Origin: Ferroglobus placidus DSM 10642
GTDB lineage: Archaea > Halobacteriota > Archaeoglobi > Archaeoglobales > Archaeoglobaceae
DNA: 32,000 bases
Assembly: GCF_000025505.1 (NCBI RefSeq)
Contig: NC_013849.1
Location: 1-32,000 of the forward strand
Direction of reading: 5' to 3'
Shown in pieces: positions 9,598 to 32,000 of this stretch. The notes beneath the pieces are model-generated. The model saw only the letters and a list, made by a program, of their open reading frames with translations. It did not search any database and was not told the origin of the DNA. Positions within the stretch are counted from its first letter, which is position 1, and every line of letters starts with the position of its first letter. The position numbers were made by a program, and so were the translations under genes.

Positions 9598-9670
9598 TGG
9601 GCTCGGCCGGATTCGAACCGGCGATCTCCGCCTCGTAAGGGCGGCGTCATAACCGCTAGACCACGAGCCC
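9598..9670 (-). tRNA. tRNA-Val (anticodon UAC)
   Basis: The reverse complement GGGCTCGTGGTCTAGCGGTTATGACGCCGCCCTTACGAGGCGGAGATCGCCGGTTCGAATCCGGCCGAGCCCA folds as a cloverleaf. It has a 7-bp acceptor stem, anticodon stem CCGCC/GGCGG with loop CTTACGA, T arm GCCGG-TTCGAAT-CCGGC and discriminator A. No CCA is encoded. Confidence 0.92.
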
Positions 9671-17032: not shown

Positions 17033-17105
17033 TGCGGCCGCCGGGATTTGAACCCGGGCTACGGGCTCGGGAGGCCCGTGTCCTGCCAGGCTAGACTACG
17101 ACCGC
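17033..17105 (-). tRNA. tRNA-Gly (anticodon CCC)
   Basis: The reverse complement GCGGTCGTAGTCTAGCCTGGCAGGACACGGGCCTCCCGAGCCCGTAGCCCGGGTTCAAATCCCGGCGGCCGCA folds as a cloverleaf. It has a 7-bp acceptor stem with one G-U pair, anticodon stem CGGGC/GCCCG with loop CTCCCGA, and T arm CCGGG-TTCAAAT-CCCGG. Confidence 0.92.
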
Positions 17106-24842: not shown

Positions 24843-25142
24843 TTTTGCTTCCTCAGCGGAAAACTTTCTGAGAGATGCAAGGACTTTCGCCTTTCGACAT
24901 CGGCTCTTTGACGAGACCCGTAAACTTAACACGAACAACCTCAAGTGGTTATAATATCAACATGAACAGTTTTACAAATCTCAATCTTCTGCTTGAGAGA
25001 ACCGCTTAGAACTTGGGTTGGACGAAACTCTGAACTATATAATGCTTGAGCCATTTTGTATTTTCGTTCAACATCGAAACATTTTTATTTGTTAATTATC
25101 AACCATAAGGTAATTTGATTCCCTGAAAAGTAGGTGGGGCAC

Positions 25143-26195
25143 ATGTTTTGCCCTAATTGTGGAGCAAAAGTTTCTGAAATACACAAATTTTGCTATAATT
25201 GCGGGCAGAAGCTCGATTTCAATCAAATAGAGACTGAAAAAAGCGTTAAAGCAAAAAAAGTTGGTAGTAAAAAAGCCAACCCGAGAATTAAAATCAAATG
25301 CACAATTCAAGGAATGACAAGGATTTTTAAGCCAAACGGCTCTTACAAAGTATACAACTTGGGAAAGTTGTCTCTGAATGAAGCAAAGGAGATCCTAAGA
25401 AAAATGCCCAGTAGAGCTGATTTTTCACAAAAACTTCTCAAATCCATTAAAAATGGAGAAGATGTTTGCCCACCTCATGTGATTTTTTCAGAGGGAGATT
25501 TTTCGCTGAACTTCTTTACAACAGATGGAAAATCACTGGAGGTTTACTGCGACGGATTAAAAAGACTAGGGAAAATCACTTTCGAACCGAACAAATCTCT
25601 TGAGGTAACGCTTGATGAAGCTGAAAACATCTTAGAAGAGTTTTATAACAAAATCGCCAAGTTCAGGAAAGTTAAAACAGAGTTGTCTCCTTTGCAGATA
25701 GCCATACTCTCTGCAGTAGATAATGGAGTGTCGAATTCAAATGCTATAGCTGCAATGACAGGAAAAAGTGTTTTTGAAGTTAAAGAAAACATCAGGAAGC
25801 TTTACTACGATGGGTATCTTGTAGCCAAGAAAAAGGGCTTTTTCAGGAAGAAGTATTACTACGAGCTGACCGATAAAGGGAGAAAAACGCTACAAAAGGA
25901 TGTGGGGAAAGTCGAAGCTGCTGTGAGGGAAGATAGGGATATAATGGACAACTTTGCTGTCGCATACTGGCTGTGGTATTCAATGAACGTCGTTCCCGAT
26001 TCTGTTACTTCCGATGAGATTGTGGATACGATTGGGGAACCTCCAGCGACGGATGAGCAAATTGCTGAATTGGTTTCCGATTCTGCGGATCATGCTGAAA
26101 GCTTAGCTTACGACACGGATGTGGACATAGGAGATGGAGATCACGGAGATGGAGATGGGGATTGGGGAGATGGTGATGCGGATGGAGATTGGTAG
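25143..26195 (+). CDS. Zinc-ribbon / duplicated alpha-beta module / winged-helix protein with (G/x)D-repeat acidic tail; putative regulator
   Basis: N-terminal zinc ribbon MFCPNCGAKVSEIHKFCYNCGQKL, and a wHTH region LSPLQIAILSAV...IRKLYYDGYLVAKKKGFFRKKYYYELTDKGRKTL. The C-terminus is DTDVDIGDGDHGDGDGDWGDGDADGDW. The ATG at 25143 is preceded by AGGTGG, whereas the ORF track starts at a GTG at 25134. Confidence 0.6.
   Translation: MFCPNCGAKVSEIHKFCYNCGQKLDFNQIETEKSVKAKKVGSKKANPRIKIKCTIQGMTRIFKPNGSYKVYNLGKLSLNEAKEILRKMPSRADFSQKLLKSIKNGEDVCPPHVIFSEGDFSLNFFTTDGKSLEVYCDGLKRLGKITFEPNKSLEVTLDEAENILEEFYNKIAKFRKVKTELSPLQIAILSAVDNGVSNSNAIAAMTGKSVFEVKENIRKLYYDGYLVAKKKGFFRKKYYYELTDKGRKTLQKDVGKVEAAVREDRDIMDNFAVAYWLWYSMNVVPDSVTSDEIVDTIGEPPATDEQIAELVSDSADHAESLAYDTDVDIGDGDHGDGDGDWGDGDADGDW
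26118..26192 (+). repeat. Imperfect GGAGAT-type hexanucleotide tract encoding the (G/x)D tail
   Basis: The codons read GAT GTG GAC ATA GGA GAT GGA GAT CAC GGA GAT GGA GAT GGG GAT TGG GGA GAT GGT GAT GCG GAT GGA GAT TGG. The candidate starts of the next gene lie inside this tract in another frame. Confidence 0.7.
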
Positions 26196-29022
26196 ATACA
26201 AACCCGTAAGCCTGTTTTTAATAGTAGTACTGGTATCTACTATATTTTTGAGTGGGTGCGATGAGGATAGGAGAGAAGATAATACCGGTTTGAAATTTGC
26301 TAAAGATAAAATTTTTGAGGAGACAATTAATGCTGAAGAAACAAGAGAAATTGATTTTGGTGATGGAAAGGTAGTAATTCCCTTTGGTGCTTTTGAAGGA
26401 AACCAAACTATAACGATCTCAAAGTTAACTGAGTTCCCATCGCCAGTAGATGCTGAAATTATCAAGGCTTACAGTGTGGAAATAGGAGATATTCACAAAT
26501 TGATGGGGTTCATTGAAATAAGGCTGAAAAATGATGGCAACAACGACAATCTCGTGGCTTTAACATACAACGAATCGTCCCAAGAGTGGGAGAGCATATT
26601 GTACCATTTGGAGGGAGAGGAGGTAGTAATTTACACGAATCATTTATCTCATTTTGCATTGGCGAGTGTTGAGGAATCCGTTGCAAAACCTAACGCGAAG
26701 ATTAAATATGTAAGGTGGCCGTCCATCTCCATAGACGAAAATACAGCTATAAAAGTTCTTGAAGAGTATATTGACAATAACTACCAGCCAGGTCCTAATG
26801 CTTACAGAGTTGGGTGGGACGCTGCAGTAGAAGCGTTAGGAGTGGAATCCCAGTATCTAACTATTGCTCAGCACGGTTATGGAATTCAGTCGGTGGAGAG
26901 AATTAACAACTGGATAGCTTACACTGGTGTCGGTATAACAGTTGCACAGCTCATGATTGATCTAAATTCTGGTGACACCACCGGAGCAGGATTGAACTTC
27001 ATGAAGAATGCCATCTACAACTATGTCAGCCTATACGGTTCACCACTTCTCCAGCTTACTTTCGTAGGTGTTTTCTGCATTGACTATTCGATAACGAAGT
27101 TTCAGAGTGAAATCTTATCCACTGAAGAGGAAATTTGGAAAAAACTGCAGAATGCGTACTACAGAAAGTATGGACGAAGTGCAAAGGACTGGTACTACAT
27201 TTTTTACGAGATTTGTAAGGATTCCACTAATGCCATAGAAGCAAAAGAAAAGATAGATAAAGAAATAGACCGCTATGTCAACGAATTTTGGGATTTTGTT
27301 AACGGGAAAGACAAGAACGGATATAGCTACGAAGATTTAGTCATGGACGTTTACGGGAAGAAACTTAAGGAAAAGGGTGAAGCTTCAATACTTGAGCAGA
27401 TACCTCATGTAAACGTTAAAATGAAGCTTAAAGAAAATCATAAAGCTGAGCTTATCTATTCCCTACAGCCCGTCTTTTATAAATTAAGCAAAGATTTAAC
27501 ACTTGAACAGGAAGAGAAGGTATTCCAAACACTCAAGAAAATCGCTAAGGAGCTTAATAAGGAGTACAAAATAAAGGTGAAAGTTAACGGTCCGAGCAAC
27601 GTTATTTCCGGTTTGAAAGTATACATTCCCGTAGCAAGGAATCAAGGGCTCTGGACGTGGGAAACCAACGAAAATGGGGAATGTTACATAACCCTTACAA
27701 TGTACGGCTATGCAAAGGCTCAGGCAGCCAATAAAATTGTTCTGGTGCTTAACAACGGAGAGACGATGGAGAAGGAATTCAAAATAACTTCCAGAACCAC
27801 TGAAGTTACCTTCGACCTTGGAGGAAGCTTGGATGTGAGCGTGGAGCCCAAGCAGGTGAGCATTGGAGACACATTTACAGTCACCGTAAAAATTGACCCG
27901 CCAACATCTACAGAGCTTCACATAAAAATGTACAACCCCTCCACAGGATATGGAAGCAGAAGTGAACCAACAGTAGTTAAAACAGACGAGAACGGAATCT
28001 GGAAGGGCACCTTCAAAGTTCCCGCCAAAGACATCGACAAAAAGGTTGGTGAAAATGTAGTGGAGGCTTATGCACCTGAGCTCGACAGCAAAGGTTCAGA
28101 CACATTTGTAATAGAGAAGCCAGAAATTTCGGTTACCGCTTCCCCCTCAACAGTCACCCCCGGTGAAAAAGTGGTTATAAAGGCTAAGGTCTCACCTCCG
28201 GGAGTTTACAACGCAAGATTGACAGTAATGAACGCTAATTCTGGAGCATCAAAGACGTTTGAAAAGAAAACCGACAGTAACGGAAATCTCGTTTTCAGGC
28301 TGAGCGTCACTGAAAAGAATCTTGAAAGCAAACTGGGAAAGAATGTCGTAACGGTGGATATACCAGAGCTCGGCATTTATGGTAGTGCGGATTTCTATAT
28401 CGAGAGTGGTGAGGTTGTGCCGACTGAGACACCAGCTGTAACTCCAGAAATACCGCAATGTTCGGAGAACGAGGAACTTACCTATATAGAAGGAATTGGC
28501 TGGTTTTGCGTTCCTTTGGAAACTACTATTACTCCAACACCCACACCTACAGAAACGCCTTCTGAAAGTCCATTTGATCCAAACAAAAAATATAGGGCCG
28601 GTTATATATTTAGGATAGAGCTCGTTGATGGGAGAATATACGATGCTCCCTTTAACACTATGGATTATGGCGACCGGATATCTGGCGGTGGCACCTACCA
28701 TGTAAAATATACAAATGATATCATGTGGGCAATCCAGTACGCAGAACTAACAATTACCTTCGATGAAAACTATAGAATCACATCTTTGCATTCATGGTAT
28801 AAACTAGTTGACAAAGAGGGGAGGTTACGTGAAGAGACAACATTATCGTGTAGTGACCTTAAGTTGGAACCTCCTGTGATAGGTGAAAAATATCCTGATC
28901 ATGTAGGATATGGGGGCGGAGGTGATGCGGTGTCTTCATGCGTATTAACTACAACGGAGAGTGAACTGCAGATGAAAAGACCAGTCCAACTATACATTCA
29001 GTTTGATAAGATAGGAGAATAA
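26182..29022 (+). CDS. Large predicted lipoprotein with tandem Ig-like repeats, Thr/Pro linker and unknown N- and C-terminal domains
   Basis: From the ATG at 26182 the protein begins MEIGRYKPVSLFLIVVLVSTIFLSGC, a signal sequence plus lipobox L-S-G-C. It carries two ~96-aa homologous repeats (27829-28119 and 28120-28407), a CarboxypepD_reg-like segment and the linker ITPTPTPTETPSESP. The start is ambiguous (26134, 26170 or 26182). Confidence 0.6.
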   Translation: MEIGRYKPVSLFLIVVLVSTIFLSGCDEDRREDNTGLKFAKDKIFEETINAEETREIDFGDGKVVIPFGAFEGNQTITISKLTEFPSPVDAEIIKAYSVEIGDIHKLMGFIEIRLKNDGNNDNLVALTYNESSQEWESILYHLEGEEVVIYTNHLSHFALASVEESVAKPNAKIKYVRWPSISIDENTAIKVLEEYIDNNYQPGPNAYRVGWDAAVEALGVESQYLTIAQHGYGIQSVERINNWIAYTGVGITVAQLMIDLNSGDTTGAGLNFMKNAIYNYVSLYGSPLLQLTFVGVFCIDYSITKFQSEILSTEEEIWKKLQNAYYRKYGRSAKDWYYIFYEICKDSTNAIEAKEKIDKEIDRYVNEFWDFVNGKDKNGYSYEDLVMDVYGKKLKEKGEASILEQIPHVNVKMKLKENHKAELIYSLQPVFYKLSKDLTLEQEEKVFQTLKKIAKELNKEYKIKVKVNGPSNVISGLKVYIPVARNQGLWTWETNENGECYITLTMYGYAKAQAANKIVLVLNNGETMEKEFKITSRTTEVTFDLGGSLDVSVEPKQVSIGDTFTVTVKIDPPTSTELHIKMYNPSTGYGSRSEPTVVKTDENGIWKGTFKVPAKDIDKKVGENVVEAYAPELDSKGSDTFVIEKPEISVTASPSTVTPGEKVVIKAKVSPPGVYNARLTVMNANSGASKTFEKKTDSNGNLVFRLSVTEKNLESKLGKNVVTVDIPELGIYGSADFYIESGEVVPTETPAVTPEIPQCSENEELTYIEGIGWFCVPLETTITPTPTPTETPSESPFDPNKKYRAGYIFRIELVDGRIYDAPFNTMDYGDRISGGGTYHVKYTNDIMWAIQYAELTITFDENYRITSLHSWYKLVDKEGRLREETTLSCSDLKLEPPVIGEKYPDHVGYGGGGDAVSSCVLTTTESELQMKRPVQLYIQFDKIGE

Positions 29023-29029
29023 AATTGAG

Positions 29030-29392
29030 GTGATAGGCAGATCGGAGGAATTAAATGTGAAGAAGCAAAAACTAAAATTCTACCGCCAGAAAGAAGGAAA
29101 AGAGGAGATAATTGAAGGCTACCCCATAGACTTAAACACAGCAATCAATGCAGTGAAAAACCTGCGGTTATCTCCTAAAGAAGTGGAAATCCCGGAAATG
29201 ATTGGTTTCATGCGTGAAAGGGCTTTCATCGAGTTTACGAAGCTTACTGATGGCTATCAGGTCAGATACGAGAATCCTGACACAAACCAGTATCTAATCG
29301 GAGAGCTGAGCGAAAAAGAAGCTATCGACTGCCTTGAAGATTTTTTCGAAGGCAGAGATATGAGGTGGGAAAGCAGGCTGGAAAGATACTGA
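29030..29392 (+). CDS. Small cytoplasmic hypothetical protein resembling the central module of the 25143 protein
   Basis: The ORF is 111-120 aa. The better start is probably the GTG at 29057, which has GGAGG 8 nt upstream. It has no signal peptide or TM helix. Collinear motifs LN.A, TDG..V.Y and L.E...(I/C)LE(E/D)F(Y/F) are shared with residues ~60-175 of the 25143 protein. Confidence 0.45.
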   Translation: MIGRSEELNVKKQKLKFYRQKEGKEEIIEGYPIDLNTAINAVKNLRLSPKEVEIPEMIGFMRERAFIEFTKLTDGYQVRYENPDTNQYLIGELSEKEAIDCLEDFFEGRDMRWESRLERY

Positions 29393-29401
29393 GGTGTGAA
29401 A

Positions 29402-30211
29402 ATGACCTCATGGAAAAAGGCGGTGCTGATATCTCTGGGAGCAATTCTGCTGATTTCTTTCATTCTCGGCTCGTATCTCTATAATGGTATTATAGAGCGA
29501 CCGATTGTGAGCGAACTGCCTGGAGCTATTACAAAAGTTGCGACGGTAAACGAATCCTCTCCTTATTATGTGGGGGTGGAAATCAAGCCCGATGTAATTG
29601 AAATGGACGTGAATGAAACGGAGACTGTAAATATTAACATTTTAAACGCTGAGAACGTTCACGAACTTCTACTGTATCTCGCTTACAATGACAGATACAT
29701 AGAGATCGTTAGCATCTCTTCCGATTACGGGTTGAATTTCTCAAAGAGCTGGGCTTACGACCACTACGCACTGCCGTTAATTAAGATAGAAGGTAAGCTT
29801 GATGGAGTCAACAATACAACTCTTGCTAAGATTACCTTTAGAAGTACCAGCGACGGAAAAACAGCCCTTTCATTTTTCAATGGAGAGTTATACGATGCCG
29901 AAGGGAGAAAGCTGAACCACATACTTCACAGTGCTGAAATCATCATCGGAAATCCAGAACTTAGTGAGGAGTCAAAAAGTTTCGACCCCATAAACTTTGC
30001 GATGGTAACTTTCGGATACGTAACCCTTCCGCTTGCGATAATCTATGGTTTGGTGTTCGCAATAGTCTTTGCGATCGGAAAGGTGATTTTAAGAATAAAA
30101 AAGAGCGATAGGGGGATAATTTACTACTGCATAGCAATAAGCTTACTTCTTTCTTTGATAGCTTATCTTACAATCCTGATCGGACTTTACAGTCTGCTTG
30201 TTGGGGGATAG
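29402..30211 (+). CDS. Membrane protein with cohesin-like extracellular beta-sandwich domain
   Basis: The ATG at 29402 is preceded by GAGGTG. It has an N-terminal TM (KKAVLISLGAILLISFILG) and a ~150-aa domain fitting the cohesin pattern (ETVNINILNAENVHELLLYLAYNDRYIEIVSIS...TTLAKITFRSTSDGKTALSF). There are at least four N-x-S/T sequons, and C-terminal TM helices separated by KKSDRG. Confidence 0.55.
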   Translation: MTSWKKAVLISLGAILLISFILGSYLYNGIIERPIVSELPGAITKVATVNESSPYYVGVEIKPDVIEMDVNETETVNINILNAENVHELLLYLAYNDRYIEIVSISSDYGLNFSKSWAYDHYALPLIKIEGKLDGVNNTTLAKITFRSTSDGKTALSFFNGELYDAEGRKLNHILHSAEIIIGNPELSEESKSFDPINFAMVTFGYVTLPLAIIYGLVFAIVFAIGKVILRIKKSDRGIIYYCIAISLLLSLIAYLTILIGLYSLLVGG

Positions 30212-30212
30212 A

Positions 30213-31139
30213 ATGATCGAGCTGTGGCGAGATGATCTGATTTACTGGGTTAAGGATGTTGTTATTTCAGAGAAAGGTGTTGTAGCTCTATCACACGGTG
30301 CAGTTTACTACTACAATCACGAAGGTGAGCTTTGCTGGGAGGAAGATATAGATGCAACTTCAATCTCACCACACGGCGATGGGATGATTGCTGGATGCGA
30401 GGATGGGGAGGTATACTGTTTTGATAATGGTGGAAAAGAGCTCTGGAGATGTGATGTTGGAGAAAAAATTAAGAAAGTCTGTTCTGCAAGCTCTATAACC
30501 TGTGCTGCAACTTCAAAGGGGAAAATAATCATTATTAAAAAAGGAAAAATATTGTGGGAATACAAGGCAGGAAGGAAAATTGATGATGTTGCCATTTTCC
30601 CTGAGCTGTATGCTGCTGTGATAGCAAAAGACCTCATTACTGGCAGAGTCTTGTTATTTGATGTTTCCGGCAGGATTCTCTGGAATTCAAAAATAAATAC
30701 TCATATCGGAGAAGCTTCCTTAGACATCTCTTCAAGATTGATTGTAGTGGGAACTCTGCAAGGAGTCTATCTGTTTGAGAAAAATGGGGATAGAGTATGG
30801 AGAAATGCCCTGAGCGGGATCAGAAGTGTAGCAATAACCTCTGACGGAAAATATATTGCAGCGGGAGCCGTTGATGGCAAAGCTTATCTCCTAAGCTATA
30901 GGGGAAAAATCGTTTGGAAAAAAGTACTCTCTAGTGCCGTGAGAAAAGTTCTGGTAACTGATGAGGGAAACTATGTATGTAATGACGGGAAAGGTCTCCG
31001 TATTTTCAATCCTCAGGGAGCACTGATATGGAAATTCGAGGGAGATGTTAGCGCTTTTGACATAACCCCTGACCTCTCGAAAATCGTCATTGGCAAAGAA
31101 GATGGTCAACTTATTTTGTTTGGATGGGATGGCAAATGA
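30213..31139 (+). CDS. Eight-bladed PQQ/WD40-like beta-propeller protein with no signal peptide
   Basis: It has about eight ~39-aa repeats, each ending in G-x-hydrophobic-(L/I/V)-W-x (GELCW, GKELW, GKILW, GRILW, GDRVW, GKIVW, GALIW, terminal GWDGK). The ATG at 30213 lies 1 nt after the previous stop. Confidence 0.7.
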   Translation: MIELWRDDLIYWVKDVVISEKGVVALSHGAVYYYNHEGELCWEEDIDATSISPHGDGMIAGCEDGEVYCFDNGGKELWRCDVGEKIKKVCSASSITCAATSKGKIIIIKKGKILWEYKAGRKIDDVAIFPELYAAVIAKDLITGRVLLFDVSGRILWNSKINTHIGEASLDISSRLIVVGTLQGVYLFEKNGDRVWRNALSGIRSVAITSDGKYIAAGAVDGKAYLLSYRGKIVWKKVLSSAVRKVLVTDEGNYVCNDGKGLRIFNPQGALIWKFEGDVSAFDITPDLSKIVIGKEDGQLILFGWDGK

Positions 31140-31879
31140 TGACTAAAATGAACATAACTATACTTGCAATACTGTTTCTCTTTGTTTTTCCAGCAACCGC
31201 TTTACCCGAGATAAACTTCAACAAAATTCTTTATTTCGATAGCGTAGGTGAAAGCGAGACCCTGAACATCTCTCTCCTGAATGGCTCACCTCTCAGCGAG
31301 CTGACCATCACATTGTATTACAAGAAGGGAATAGAATTAACAAACATAACCTCTGCCTATCCAATCCTGAAAAAGGAATTAAACGAGGAAAATGGAAAAT
31401 TTCACCTCTTCTTAAACTTTCTTACGAAAAACCTCACGGACAACGAAACGGTCATTGCTTCAATTGAAATCAAAGCACTTTCTAAAGGATATTTTCCCAT
31501 GAAGATTGAGGCGTCTGGGCGCTATGAAAACGGGACAACCGTTGACGTTCTCGAAAGGTATTATAGTGTAGAGGTAATATCGGGAGAAGAGAATATCCCC
31601 GAAGCTCAGACTGTAGTGGGTCCTTTATTGATGTTTATGGTGATATTCGGTATGGTCGTTAGTATAGCGATAGTTGCCGGAGTGTTAACACTGCCGATTC
31701 TTATCGTTTACGCTGTCTTGAAAGCAAAAGGAAGAAATATCGATGTTAGATACCTCATCATTGCTTTTGTGTTTGTTCTGCTCTTGGCCTTTACGATGAT
31801 ATTTTGGGGTGTTGTGTATGGGCAAGCTGAAGTTCTTTCTGGCAGCAGTAATTTTGCTTGCTCTGTGTGGGTGTATTGA
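31136..31879 (+). CDS. Membrane protein with cohesin-like extracellular domain (paralog of 29402-30211)
   Basis: Signal peptide MMTKMNITILAILFLFVFPATA, then a domain ETLNISLLNGSPLSELTITLYYKKGIELTNITS...ETVIASIEIKALSKG. The ectodomain has six N-x-S/T sequons. The C-terminal TM helices are separated by KAKGRN, giving the same architecture as 29402-30211. The ATG overlaps the previous TGA (ATGATGA). Confidence 0.5.
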   Translation: MMTKMNITILAILFLFVFPATALPEINFNKILYFDSVGESETLNISLLNGSPLSELTITLYYKKGIELTNITSAYPILKKELNEENGKFHLFLNFLTKNLTDNETVIASIEIKALSKGYFPMKIEASGRYENGTTVDVLERYYSVEVISGEENIPEAQTVVGPLLMFMVIFGMVVSIAIVAGVLTLPILIVYAVLKAKGRNIDVRYLIIAFVFVLLLAFTMIFWGVVYGQAEVLSGSSNFACSVWVY

Positions 31880-32000
31880 GGAGAAGCAATCTGCAACCCA
31901 TGTGAATTTCGAACTGATATCGGTAATGAAAGATAACTCCACTTACAAAGCGGTTGTATTTATCAAATCAATTGAGCGTAATAAATCCATTCCTGTTTCA
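31818..32000 (+). CDS. Predicted lipoprotein, 5' part only (runs off the window)
   Basis: My hand translation gives MGKLKFFLAAVILLALCGCIEEKQSATHVNFELISVMKDNSTYKAVVFIKSIERNKSIPVS..., a signal sequence with a lipobox-like LCGC. There is no stop before the window end. It overlaps the previous ORF by 62 nt. Confidence 0.4.
   Translation, partial: MGKLKFFLAAVILLALCGCIEEKQSATHVNFELISVMKDNSTYKAVVFIKSIERNKSIPVS

Follow-up and report, generated by a model that had tools for sequence, protein, structure and literature searches.

The last seven genes in positions 1 to 32,000 of contig NC_013849.1 of the archaeon Ferroglobus placidus DSM 10642 (this stretch of 32,000 nucleotides (nt) being the window) form a co-directional cluster, g1 to g7, which we lean towards reading as a cell-envelope module built around a releasable adhesin. 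The large lipoprotein g2 would cut itself beside its lipid anchor and be shed, acting with a second lipoprotein (g7), cohesin-fold membrane proteins and a dedicated regulator. In the open reading frame (ORF) listing all seven genes are on the + strand, the first starting at 25134/25143 and the last reaching the window edge, and the operon continues to about 32882. The genes are listed below with coordinates, strand and product and, where a call rests on a particular analysis, that analysis in brackets.

25143..26195, + strand: g1 (Ferp_0035-type), 350 residues, zinc-ribbon and winged helix-turn-helix (wHTH) protein (Pfam, profile against PDB, homologue alignment)
26182..29022, + strand: g2 (Ferp_0036), 946 residues from 26182, alternative start at 26134 (AlphaFold2 (AF2) models, Foldseek)
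29030..29392, + strand: g3 (Ferp_0037-type), 120 residues, small acidic cytoplasmic protein (sequence, synteny)
29402..30211, + strand: g4, 269 residues, N-terminal transmembrane (TM) anchor, cohesin-fold ectodomain with 5 N-glycosylation sequons, two C-terminal TM helices
30213..31139, + strand: g5 (Ferp_0039), 308 residues, cytoplasmic PQQ/BamB-type β-propeller of 8 repeats (Pfam, repeat spacing)
31136..31879, + strand: g6, 247 residues, signal peptide, cohesin-fold ectodomain with 7 sequons, two C-terminal TM helices
31818..32000, ending at ~32882, + strand: g7 (Ferp_0041), 354 residues, second lipoprotein (ORF and a matching public contig, L001)

The central protein is g2, with a mass of ~105 kDa. 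Its residues are counted here from the start at 26134. It consists, in order, of a lipobox, a β-sandwich of MAIN/GAIN-B/ZU5-like type, a helical domain, three immunoglobulin (Ig)/macroglobulin (MG)-like β-sandwiches, a Thr/Pro-rich linker and a variable C-terminal domain. Model confidence is given as the predicted local distance difference test (pLDDT).

26248..26259, + strand: lipobox L-S-G-C, with the Cys codon at 26257–26259 (signal prediction, conserved in most homologues)
26299..26673, + strand: N-terminal β-sandwich, residues 56–180 (AF2 pLDDT 70–90, Foldseek)
26641..26649, + strand: H170-L171-S172, predicted autoproteolysis site (Leu/Ser) (motif conservation, modelled turn)
26731..27558, + strand: helical domain, residues ~200–475 (homologue alignment, low-confidence model)
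27562..28401, + strand: three tandem Ig/macroglobulin-like β-sandwiches, residues ~477–756 (pLDDT 75–87)
28411..29019, + strand: Thr/Pro-rich linker, residues ~760–815, and C-terminal domain, residues ~816–962 (sequence, locus comparison)

The signal peptide ends …STIFLSGC, which agrees with the lipobox pattern [LVI][ASTVI][GAS]C, and lipid modification is predicted. The lipobox ends only 14 residues before the GAIN-B/ZU5-like domain, which places this domain beside the envelope anchor of an exported protein. A domain of ZU5/GPS type was predicted from the g2 motif first; the N-terminal half was then modelled separately and searched against the PDB. With Foldseek, the top match was the GAIN domain of CD97 (9mqr_A, E 6.8e-5), and the others were ankyrin ZU5 domains (3ud2, 4d8o, 3kbu_D and 6m3q; E 8e-5 to 1e-3). 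These were the sole PDB matches at E ≤ 1e-3. For 3kbu_D the TM-score was 0.59, normalised to the 156-residue ZU5 chain.

The motif itself, T-x-H-[L/F]-S-x-[F/Y]-A, is invariant in an alignment of eight g2 homologues, including three bacterial lipoproteins of 22–25 % identity. The motif stretch in F. placidus is YTNHLSHFALASV, and one homologue (P0003) has the HFS variant. In the model, H170-L171-S172 occupies the turn that joins the final two strands (E163–170 and E173–179), and the strand SHFALASV directly follows the predicted cut. The stretch NHL/SHFAL of g2 resembles what we take to be the corresponding sequence of CD97/EMR2, NHL/SSFAIL, although literal searches for the CD97 Stachel failed. 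In GAIN domains, cleavage takes place between the last two β-strands, for example in latrophilin, whose Stachel reads TNFAVLM… (PMC6137404), and the site in GAIN and MAIN domains is HX(S/T) (PMC6137404; bioRxiv 10.64898/2026.05.12.724683). Bacterial MAIN domains (microbial GAIN-B; Brogan & Rudner) have been found experimentally to cleave at HX(S/T), the fragments staying associated. MAIN domains are also present in archaea, lie beside an envelope anchor and permit the release of large ectodomains; their sequence conservation is, according to the same authors, weak, and their published arrangement is signal peptide, ectodomain, MAIN and C-terminal anchor (bioRxiv 10.64898/2026.05.12.724683). 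The ZU5, GPS and Nup98 autopeptidases belong to one superfamily, with ZU5 located N-terminally in large bacterial surface proteins (PMC3482391).

By its modelled fold, its motif, the position of the motif, export and proximity to the anchor, the N-terminal domain of g2 fits the MAIN/GAIN-B/ZU5 superfamily, and we infer that g2 probably cleaves itself between Leu171 and Ser172. It shares the β-sandwich fold and the H-hydrophobic-S in a β-turn between the last two strands with other members (adhesion G protein-coupled receptors (GPCRs), PIDD and bacterial ZU5–RHS proteins), and its sequence after the predicted cut, S-x-F-A-L, is similar to the T-x-F-A-V-L of the adhesion GPCR Stachel. Like MAIN proteins it is large and exported, with the domain beside the envelope anchor and fused to Ig-like domains of adhesion type. 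It differs from them in its inverted order (lipid anchor, MAIN, ectodomain), which is closer to that of the large bacterial surface proteins with an N-terminal ZU5 (PMC3482391). In addition, its anchor is an archaeal lipobox rather than a sortase signal, SLH or seven-transmembrane (7TM) domain, the Cys position of the C-x-H motif is taken by Thr, and similarity at the level of hidden Markov models (HMMs) is lacking. Nor have MAIN proteins so far been reported as parts of a conserved set of genes that includes a regulator, as g2 is. The first-pass annotation had stated that the cluster contained no protease or other recognisable enzyme. This holds in so far as no conventional enzyme was found, but the predicted self-cleaving domain had been overlooked.

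Two of the bacterial homologues of the N-terminal half of g2, P0006 and P0008 (L003 10001–13091 and L007 8982–11801), are lipoproteins with the HLS motif, and in both cases lgt, encoding prolipoprotein diacylglyceryl transferase, directly follows the gene. Since the two proteins are close relatives, this adjacency amounts to about one independent observation.

Beyond the predicted cleavage site, the helical domain is the stretch best conserved with the bacterial homologues. It includes a hydrophobic helix pair with the motif VGVFCIDYS, and its low-confidence model gave no fold match. The Ig-like repeats proposed in the first-pass annotation are borne out by three well-modelled β-sandwiches. 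With the whole model, Foldseek returned MG domains of α2-macroglobulin and complement, fibronectin type III sandwiches and RbmA, at TM-scores of only 0.1–0.16, so that this likeness is generic to tandem sandwiches. As a large, lipid-anchored protein with tandem macroglobulin-like β-sandwiches, g2 is comparable to bacterial lipoproteins of the α2-macroglobulin type (for example, E. coli YfhM) and to complement or thioester proteins, but it lacks the C-x-E-Q thioester motif and has neither a thioester domain nor a bait region. We considered and rejected a thioester protein of this kind on the absence of C-x-E-Q from the sequence and the merely generic MG likeness (TM-scores ≤ 0.16).

The C-terminal domain, or tip, is 68–69 % identical to that of Palaeococcus ferrophilus, and is replaced or absent in five other loci (L005, L013, L021, L011 and L022; g2 of L013 is essentially without it). 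Exchange or loss of the tip is seen even among loci that share up to 78 % identity in the Ig domains before it. As the replacement occurs past the Thr/Pro linker between otherwise close loci, we regard the tip as a polymorphic, recombining module. N-glycosylation sequons are depleted in g2 (2 observed compared with 6.8 expected from shuffles) and enriched in g4, g6 and g7. The Thr/Pro-rich linkers of g2 are possible O-glycosylation sites.

The neighbourhood was tested using g2 homologues, a g7 homologue and g3 in GTDB genomes and JGI metagenomes as anchors, and all seven proteins were mapped onto the recovered contigs by tblastn. The first-pass annotation had made its proposal depend on the genes occurring together elsewhere, and they do: six of the seven products have homologues that recur together, in shuffled order, on about 15 contigs, which belong to Hydrothermarchaeota, to unclassified archaea of vents and, with a decayed copy, to Palaeococcus. 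The loci that carry g1, g2, g3, g4/g6 and g7, with or without g5, are L002/L012/L019, L005, L006/L017, L011, L013–L016, L018 and L020–L022. In Ca. Pyrohabitans JdFR-16/17 and another Hydrothermarchaeota metagenome-assembled genome (MAG) the order is g3–g4–g7'(−)–[g1 paralogue(−)]–g1–g2–g5, the g1 paralogue not being detected in the second MAG (L013). The arrangement g1–g2–(x)–g7–g3–g4–g6 is that of an unclassified archaeal MAG and of several contigs from vent metagenomes, and L005 has g1–g2'–g2–g7–g3–g4–g5. Because the gene set is kept while its order is shuffled, we interpret this as a functional link between the genes and not as recent shared ancestry, and the co-occurrence of six of seven homologues on ~15 contigs as the mark of a conserved, horizontally spread module. 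In Hydrothermarchaeota there is also a second, divergently transcribed pair (L002 6387–8782, L014 10717–11388), consisting of a short g1 paralogue (Zn ribbon, wHTH and tail) and a TM-anchored protein of 557 residues that is homologous to g7 in its C-terminal half.

Palaeococcus ferrophilus, a member of the Thermococci, carries a decayed copy (L008–L010; L008 7322–10792, LANF01000019). Its lipoprotein, of 696 residues, shares the Ig repeats and has no MAIN or helical part; its g3 is 61 % identical to that of F. placidus, g4 is reduced to a 67-residue N-terminal remnant, and g7 has an in-frame stop. The encoded proteins are nevertheless 55–69 % identical to those of F. placidus, and a copy so decayed and yet so similar suggests a recent transfer between classes followed by erosion. 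The families are also very rare, with eight g2 homologues and two g7 homologues among 5.8 billion proteins. High identity across classes and extreme rarity together point to horizontal spread among hydrothermal archaea. A search of GTDB representative genomes with exact g2 peptide patterns revealed no relative, the source region perhaps being masked there. The first-pass annotation had suspected a horizontal origin from a lower GC content. The phyletic pattern (55–69 % identity to P. ferrophilus, few homologues) supports transfer; the compositional signal is weak (41.1 % GC in the cluster compared with 43.4 % for 1–25000), and it is the pattern more than the composition that carries the conclusion. 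For GC content at third codon positions (GC3), the values are 0.437 for the cluster and 0.490 ± 0.034, a difference of about 1.5 standard deviations.

Proteins g4 and g6 were described in the first-pass annotation as paralogous, cohesin-like and rich in sequons, and all three points stand. They are 28 % identical (E 1e-9), with an ectodomain of ~160 residues each, and their sequons exceed those of shuffled sequences (P = 0.035 for g4 and P = 0.0005 for g6). Neither has a Pfam match itself; on sequence grounds both appear too divergent to score as cohesin. Two family members, P0022 (25.5 bits) and P0023 (25.8 bits), do exceed the Cohesin cutoff of 24.1, and a third, P0021, is weak. With a g4+g6 profile, HMMER recovered nine family members at E < 1e-10 among 1.84 billion representatives, and the weaker matches were exclusively genuine multi-cohesin proteins (P0027–P0031). 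The two members above the Pfam cutoff and the remote matches, all of them cohesin proteins, make the cohesin-like assignment right. A word-indexed homologue search with g4 found only g4 itself. The g4/g6 ectodomain is thus a divergent, extracellular, membrane-proximal relative of the cohesin modules (PF00963) of scaffoldins and of archaeal cohesins such as those of Archaeoglobus fulgidus. It differs from these in that each protein has a single cohesin, bounded by an N-terminal TM segment or signal peptide and two C-terminal TM helices instead of SLH or sortase anchoring, scores below the Pfam threshold, and has no dockerin partner detected in the operon.

For g1, the combination of zinc ribbon, wHTH and acidic tail seen in the first reading is upheld by Pfam, the PDB profile comparison and the homologue alignment. 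The protein runs from an N-terminal Zn ribbon (Zn_Ribbon_1, 30.6 bits, cutoff 25) through a Lys-rich linker, a family-specific middle domain of ~125 residues (~50–175) and a wHTH (~172–273) to the acidic tail, and no TM segment is predicted. The wHTH of the window protein alone remains below the Pfam cutoffs and is detected by the family profile. When built from seven homologues, this profile matches MarR (3f3x, E 4.5e-5) and AspA (E 8e-4 to ~1e-3) in the PDB over residues ~172–273. The likeness to MarR/PadR regulators and to AspA of pNOB8 consists of this segment, and g1 departs from MarR/PadR regulators in its Zn ribbon, its middle domain and its GDWGDG…W tail. We therefore predict that the wHTH belongs to a DNA-binding regulator of MarR/PadR-like type.

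The g1 tail, rich in Gly and Asp, has the form GDWGDG…DGxW-stop, is kept in seven homologues and reads GDWGDGDADGDW in F. placidus; it looks like a partner-docking or autoinhibitory peptide. Comparison of the g1 C-terminus (26080–26195) with the homologues in L002, L011, L013, L014 and L022 gives …GDWGDG(D/G)xDGxW-stop. The tail is common to all but one of the recovered g1-family sequences, including the short paralogue that has no middle domain; the exception, the g1 copy of L017, ends …SYDEW.

The remaining proteins complete the module. The most conserved member is g3, at 59–66 % identity across all loci, and it gave no Pfam, NCBIfam or PDB match in sequence and profile searches. Its proposed resemblance to the middle of g1 has to be dropped (BLASTP E 7, hhalign probability 0.5 %). 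The propeller g5 matches PQQ_2 with 63.6 bits (cutoff 27.6) and has eight [LIVC]W repeats ~38 residues apart. No signal peptide or lipobox is predicted, in keeping with the eight-bladed propeller without signal peptide described at first. It is not a BamB orthologue, since it has neither of these export signals and reaches only 62.5 bits against TIGR03300 compared with 285; it is also optional, being found in only a subset of loci. Signal prediction substantiates the lipoboxes attributed earlier to g2 (LSGC) and g7 (LCGC, in a signal ending …LLALCGC). The nine sequons of g7 exceed those of shuffles (P < 0.0005); g7 showed no Pfam or PDB relative, and no relatives were detected outside this module. 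More generally, sequence and profile searches of g2, g3, g4/g6 and g7 against the PDB found nothing, and none of the systems represented in Pfam, NCBIfam, PADLOC, PHROGs or the PDB lays claim to these proteins, as the proposal of an undescribed system had required.

From these components the following mechanism can be proposed. The MAIN-type β-sandwich immediately after the lipid-modified Cys of g2 would undergo an N→O acyl shift that severs the bond from Leu171 to Ser172, leaving a lipid-anchored stub of ~130 residues and an ectodomain of ~790 residues joined only by the last β-strand (SHFALASV). The releasable part would then comprise the helical domain, the three Ig-like domains, the Thr/Pro stalk and the variable tip. 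Force or heat could free it, in the way demonstrated for bacterial MAIN proteins and adhesion GPCRs. Because the lipid anchor comes first in this inverted order, it is the shed piece that would carry the last strand, while the stub would stay on the membrane. Heavily N-glycosylated, g7 would be a second lipoprotein acting with g2. The cohesin-fold domains of g4 and g6 may hold or organise g2, g7 or both at the membrane, with g3 and the propeller g5 as presumed cytoplasmic partners. Finally, g1 would regulate the operon, its acidic, Trp-ending tail probably docking onto a partner. Adhesion with release would be the biological role of the whole.

Several observations weigh against this explanation. 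The overall g2 models are of low confidence (pLDDT 58–59) and are reliable only in the β-sandwich domains. At the sequence level, HMMER gave no match to the ZU5, GPS or GAIN families of Pfam, even for the isolated domain at E ≤ 10; HMMER searches of the N-terminal domain against the PDB and Pfam gave chance matches only, as did those with a 44-residue peptide around the motif. Ankyrin ZU5 domains have the same fold without cutting. Nearly every published MAIN protein has the opposite of the g2 order (anchor, MAIN, ectodomain), and in some loci there are big lipoproteins with no MAIN domain, either replacing g2 or beside it. In addition, the Hydrothermarchaeota cohesin protein has no C-terminal TM pair, and Dockerin_1 (PF00404) matches no product of the operon, g2 and g7 included, nor could any other ligand for a cohesin be recognised among them.

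One alternative, which we consider unlikely, is outside-in (mechano)signalling, where force would strip the ectodomain from g2 and expose or free the stub with its last strand, a change that g4/g6, together with g7, would sense and pass on through g3 and g5 to g1, which would respond by altering transcription. Genes for all four kinds of component (extracellular, membrane, cytoplasmic and DNA-binding) invariably occur together, g1 always lies directly upstream of the big lipoprotein and ends in a conserved docking-type tail, and the GAIN-type site adjoins the anchor of g2. Autoproteolytic sensor domains that signal also have precedent, but the MAIN authors favour release over signalling (bioRxiv 10.64898/2026.05.12.724683). 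Moreover, g1 has no TM segment, the predicted cytoplasmic loops of g4/g6 comprise only ~10–18 residues, the cohesin proteins of Hydrothermarchaeota have no C-terminal TMs at all, g5 is absent from many loci, and no kinase, protease or other transducer was found. The closest parallels would be the SEAL-domain RsgI anti-σ factors and adhesion GPCRs, in which, as predicted for g2, an autoproteolytic extracellular domain stands beside a membrane anchor. The SEAL-domain RsgI proteins further share a genetic coupling to a transcription factor and, in clostridia, an involvement with cohesin/dockerin biology. Here, however, there is no TM link between g2 and the regulator and no site-2 protease or G-protein machinery, so that the resemblance is one of logic only. 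Slightly more doubtful again is the full version of this idea, an archaeal mechanosensory or surface-contact pathway in which g2 shedding would be sensed by the cohesin-fold proteins together with g7 and passed to g1 through g3, g5 and the GDWGDG…W tail.

Equally improbable, in our estimation, is a canonical cohesin–dockerin scaffold. Archaeal pairs of this type are known, according to the passage of PMC9012536 that cites Bayer 1999, Haimovitz 2008 and Peer 2009, and with the cohesin relationship of g4/g6 confirmed, these could bind dockerin-bearing proteins (for example, the C-terminal domain of g2) in a cellulosome-like surface complex. The corresponding proposal of the first-pass annotation, a cohesin-like scaffold assembling proteins at the surface, survives as regards the conserved, operon-like module and the cohesin fold, but its dockerin half was not found: g2 and g7 have neither Dockerin_1 nor the calcium loop (D-x-[DN]-x-[DN]-G, sought in the operon products and absent from g2–g7). 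The candidate ligand, the g2 tip, is not a constant feature as g4 is, since it varies and can be missing, and both g2 and g7 already own lipid anchors.

A polymorphic toxin acting in contact-dependent competition appears less probable still. Here g2 would be the displayed toxin, with ZU5 as releasing peptidase and a swappable toxin at the C terminus, and g3 the immunity protein. Such toxins typically have ZU5 at the N terminus of a large surface protein (PMC3482391), loci that are close relatives differ in the domain past the Thr/Pro linker, and a small cytoplasmic gene directly follows g2 in F. placidus and P. ferrophilus. Nevertheless, g3 is ~60 % identical everywhere whatever the g2 tip, and lies apart from g2 in several loci. 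As it is invariant while the tip varies, we rejected an immunity function for g3. In addition, L013 practically dispenses with the tip, scans of Pfam, NCBIfam and PADLOC gave no toxin, immunity, RHS or secretion-system family, and, in contrast to toxin cassettes, neither the membrane partners nor the regulator varies.

That these are unrelated hypothetical genes lying side by side, or the remnant of a virus or plasmid, is very improbable: GC and GC3 are slightly below those of the neighbours and the phyletic distribution is patchy, but this reading is largely refuted by synteny, the linkage being kept in at least four lineages despite the shuffled order, and there is no integrase or adjacent tRNA in the window and no meaningful PHROG or PADLOC match. 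A defence system or prophage remnant was likewise rejected, the PADLOC and PHROGs scans of the seven products being without signal and no integrase being present. Just two RNA genes were detected across the window, both on the − strand: tRNA-Val(TAC) at 9598–9670 and tRNA-Gly(CCC) at 17033–17105, neither of which flanks the cluster.

As regards gene layout, the seven co-directional + strand genes and their junctions were re-read from the ORFs and agree with the first description. The overlap of g1 and g2 is 14 nt with the g2 start at 26182, or 62 nt with the alternative start at 26134; the former has GGTGA 5 nt upstream and gives a complete lipoprotein signal. A 7-nt gap separates the g2 stop (29022) from the g3 GTG (29030), a 9-nt gap with GAGGTG upstream of the start separates the g3 stop (29392) from the g4 ATG (29402), and a single nucleotide lies between the g4 stop (30211) and the g5 ATG (30213). 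The g5/g6 junction is an ATGA overlap (31136–31139), and the g7 ATG (31818) precedes the g6 stop (31879) with a 62-nt overlap. Shine-Dalgarno-like GGTG/GAGGTG motifs are found before the starts at 25143, 26182, 29402, 30213 and 31818.

Since g7 runs past the window edge, it was completed with L001, a matching public contig (Logan SRR019237). In this contig the end of g7 (~32882) is followed by a 175-nt gap and then by a gene for a B12-binding radical-SAM protein, and on these two grounds we set the operon at exactly seven genes. Positions 1–~450 of L001 do not match window positions 25289–~25740 (432 mismatches, starting at the first overlapping bases). The discrepancy probably arose during assembly, at the end of the contig, and the rest of L001 was used only where the encoded proteins equal those of the window.

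Upstream of g1, the AT-rich spacer, earlier put at about 260 nt, measures 262 nt (24881–25142) and has 38.2 % GC. The Shine-Dalgarno-like AGGTGG reported before g1 is also present, and the spacer contains the following elements.

25082..25142, + strand: putative promoter and leader (read from the sequence)
25082–25090, + strand: TTTTTATTT box, TATA-like, ~57 nt before the g1 ATG
25132–25137, + strand: AGGTGG, Shine-Dalgarno-like, 5 nt before the g1 ATG

Judged from the nucleotides alone, a TATA function of the box, the position of the transcription start site and a leader of ~30 nt for g1 are plausible. In the existing annotation, g2 (Ferp_0036) and g7 (Ferp_0041) are hypothetical proteins and g5 (Ferp_0039) is a 'PQQ-like repeat protein'. 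Literature searches found no mention of Ferp_0035–0041 and no description of this gene neighbourhood at the arCOG level.

The individual folds (cohesin, GAIN/ZU5, Ig-like, PQQ propeller and MarR wHTH) are already known, and autoproteolysis of the GAIN type in microbes has just been described. What appears to be new is an archaeal, lipobox-anchored GAIN/ZU5-like domain of inverted order that is predicted to cleave itself. Also new are its fixed association with cohesin-fold membrane proteins, g3, g7, a propeller and a regulator, and the patchy distribution of this association, which resembles that expected of horizontal gene transfer. Autoproteolytic domains of the GAIN type have only lately been recognised beyond eukaryotes, and there as stand-alone release devices. 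The g2 domain is unusual in that it belongs to a hyperthermophilic archaeon, has the inverse, lipid-anchored orientation and is locked in a conserved module. Were the signalling interpretation true, it would provide a prokaryotic counterpart of adhesion-GPCR logic with wholly different transducers. The module defines at least three unannotated protein families (g3, g7 and the helical domain of g2) and documents the transfer of an envelope module between Archaeoglobi, Hydrothermarchaeota and Thermococci. It also offers a small, testable system in which to study self-cleavage at ~85 °C, the ligands of single archaeal cohesins that have no dockerin, and the possible coupling of shedding to gene regulation.

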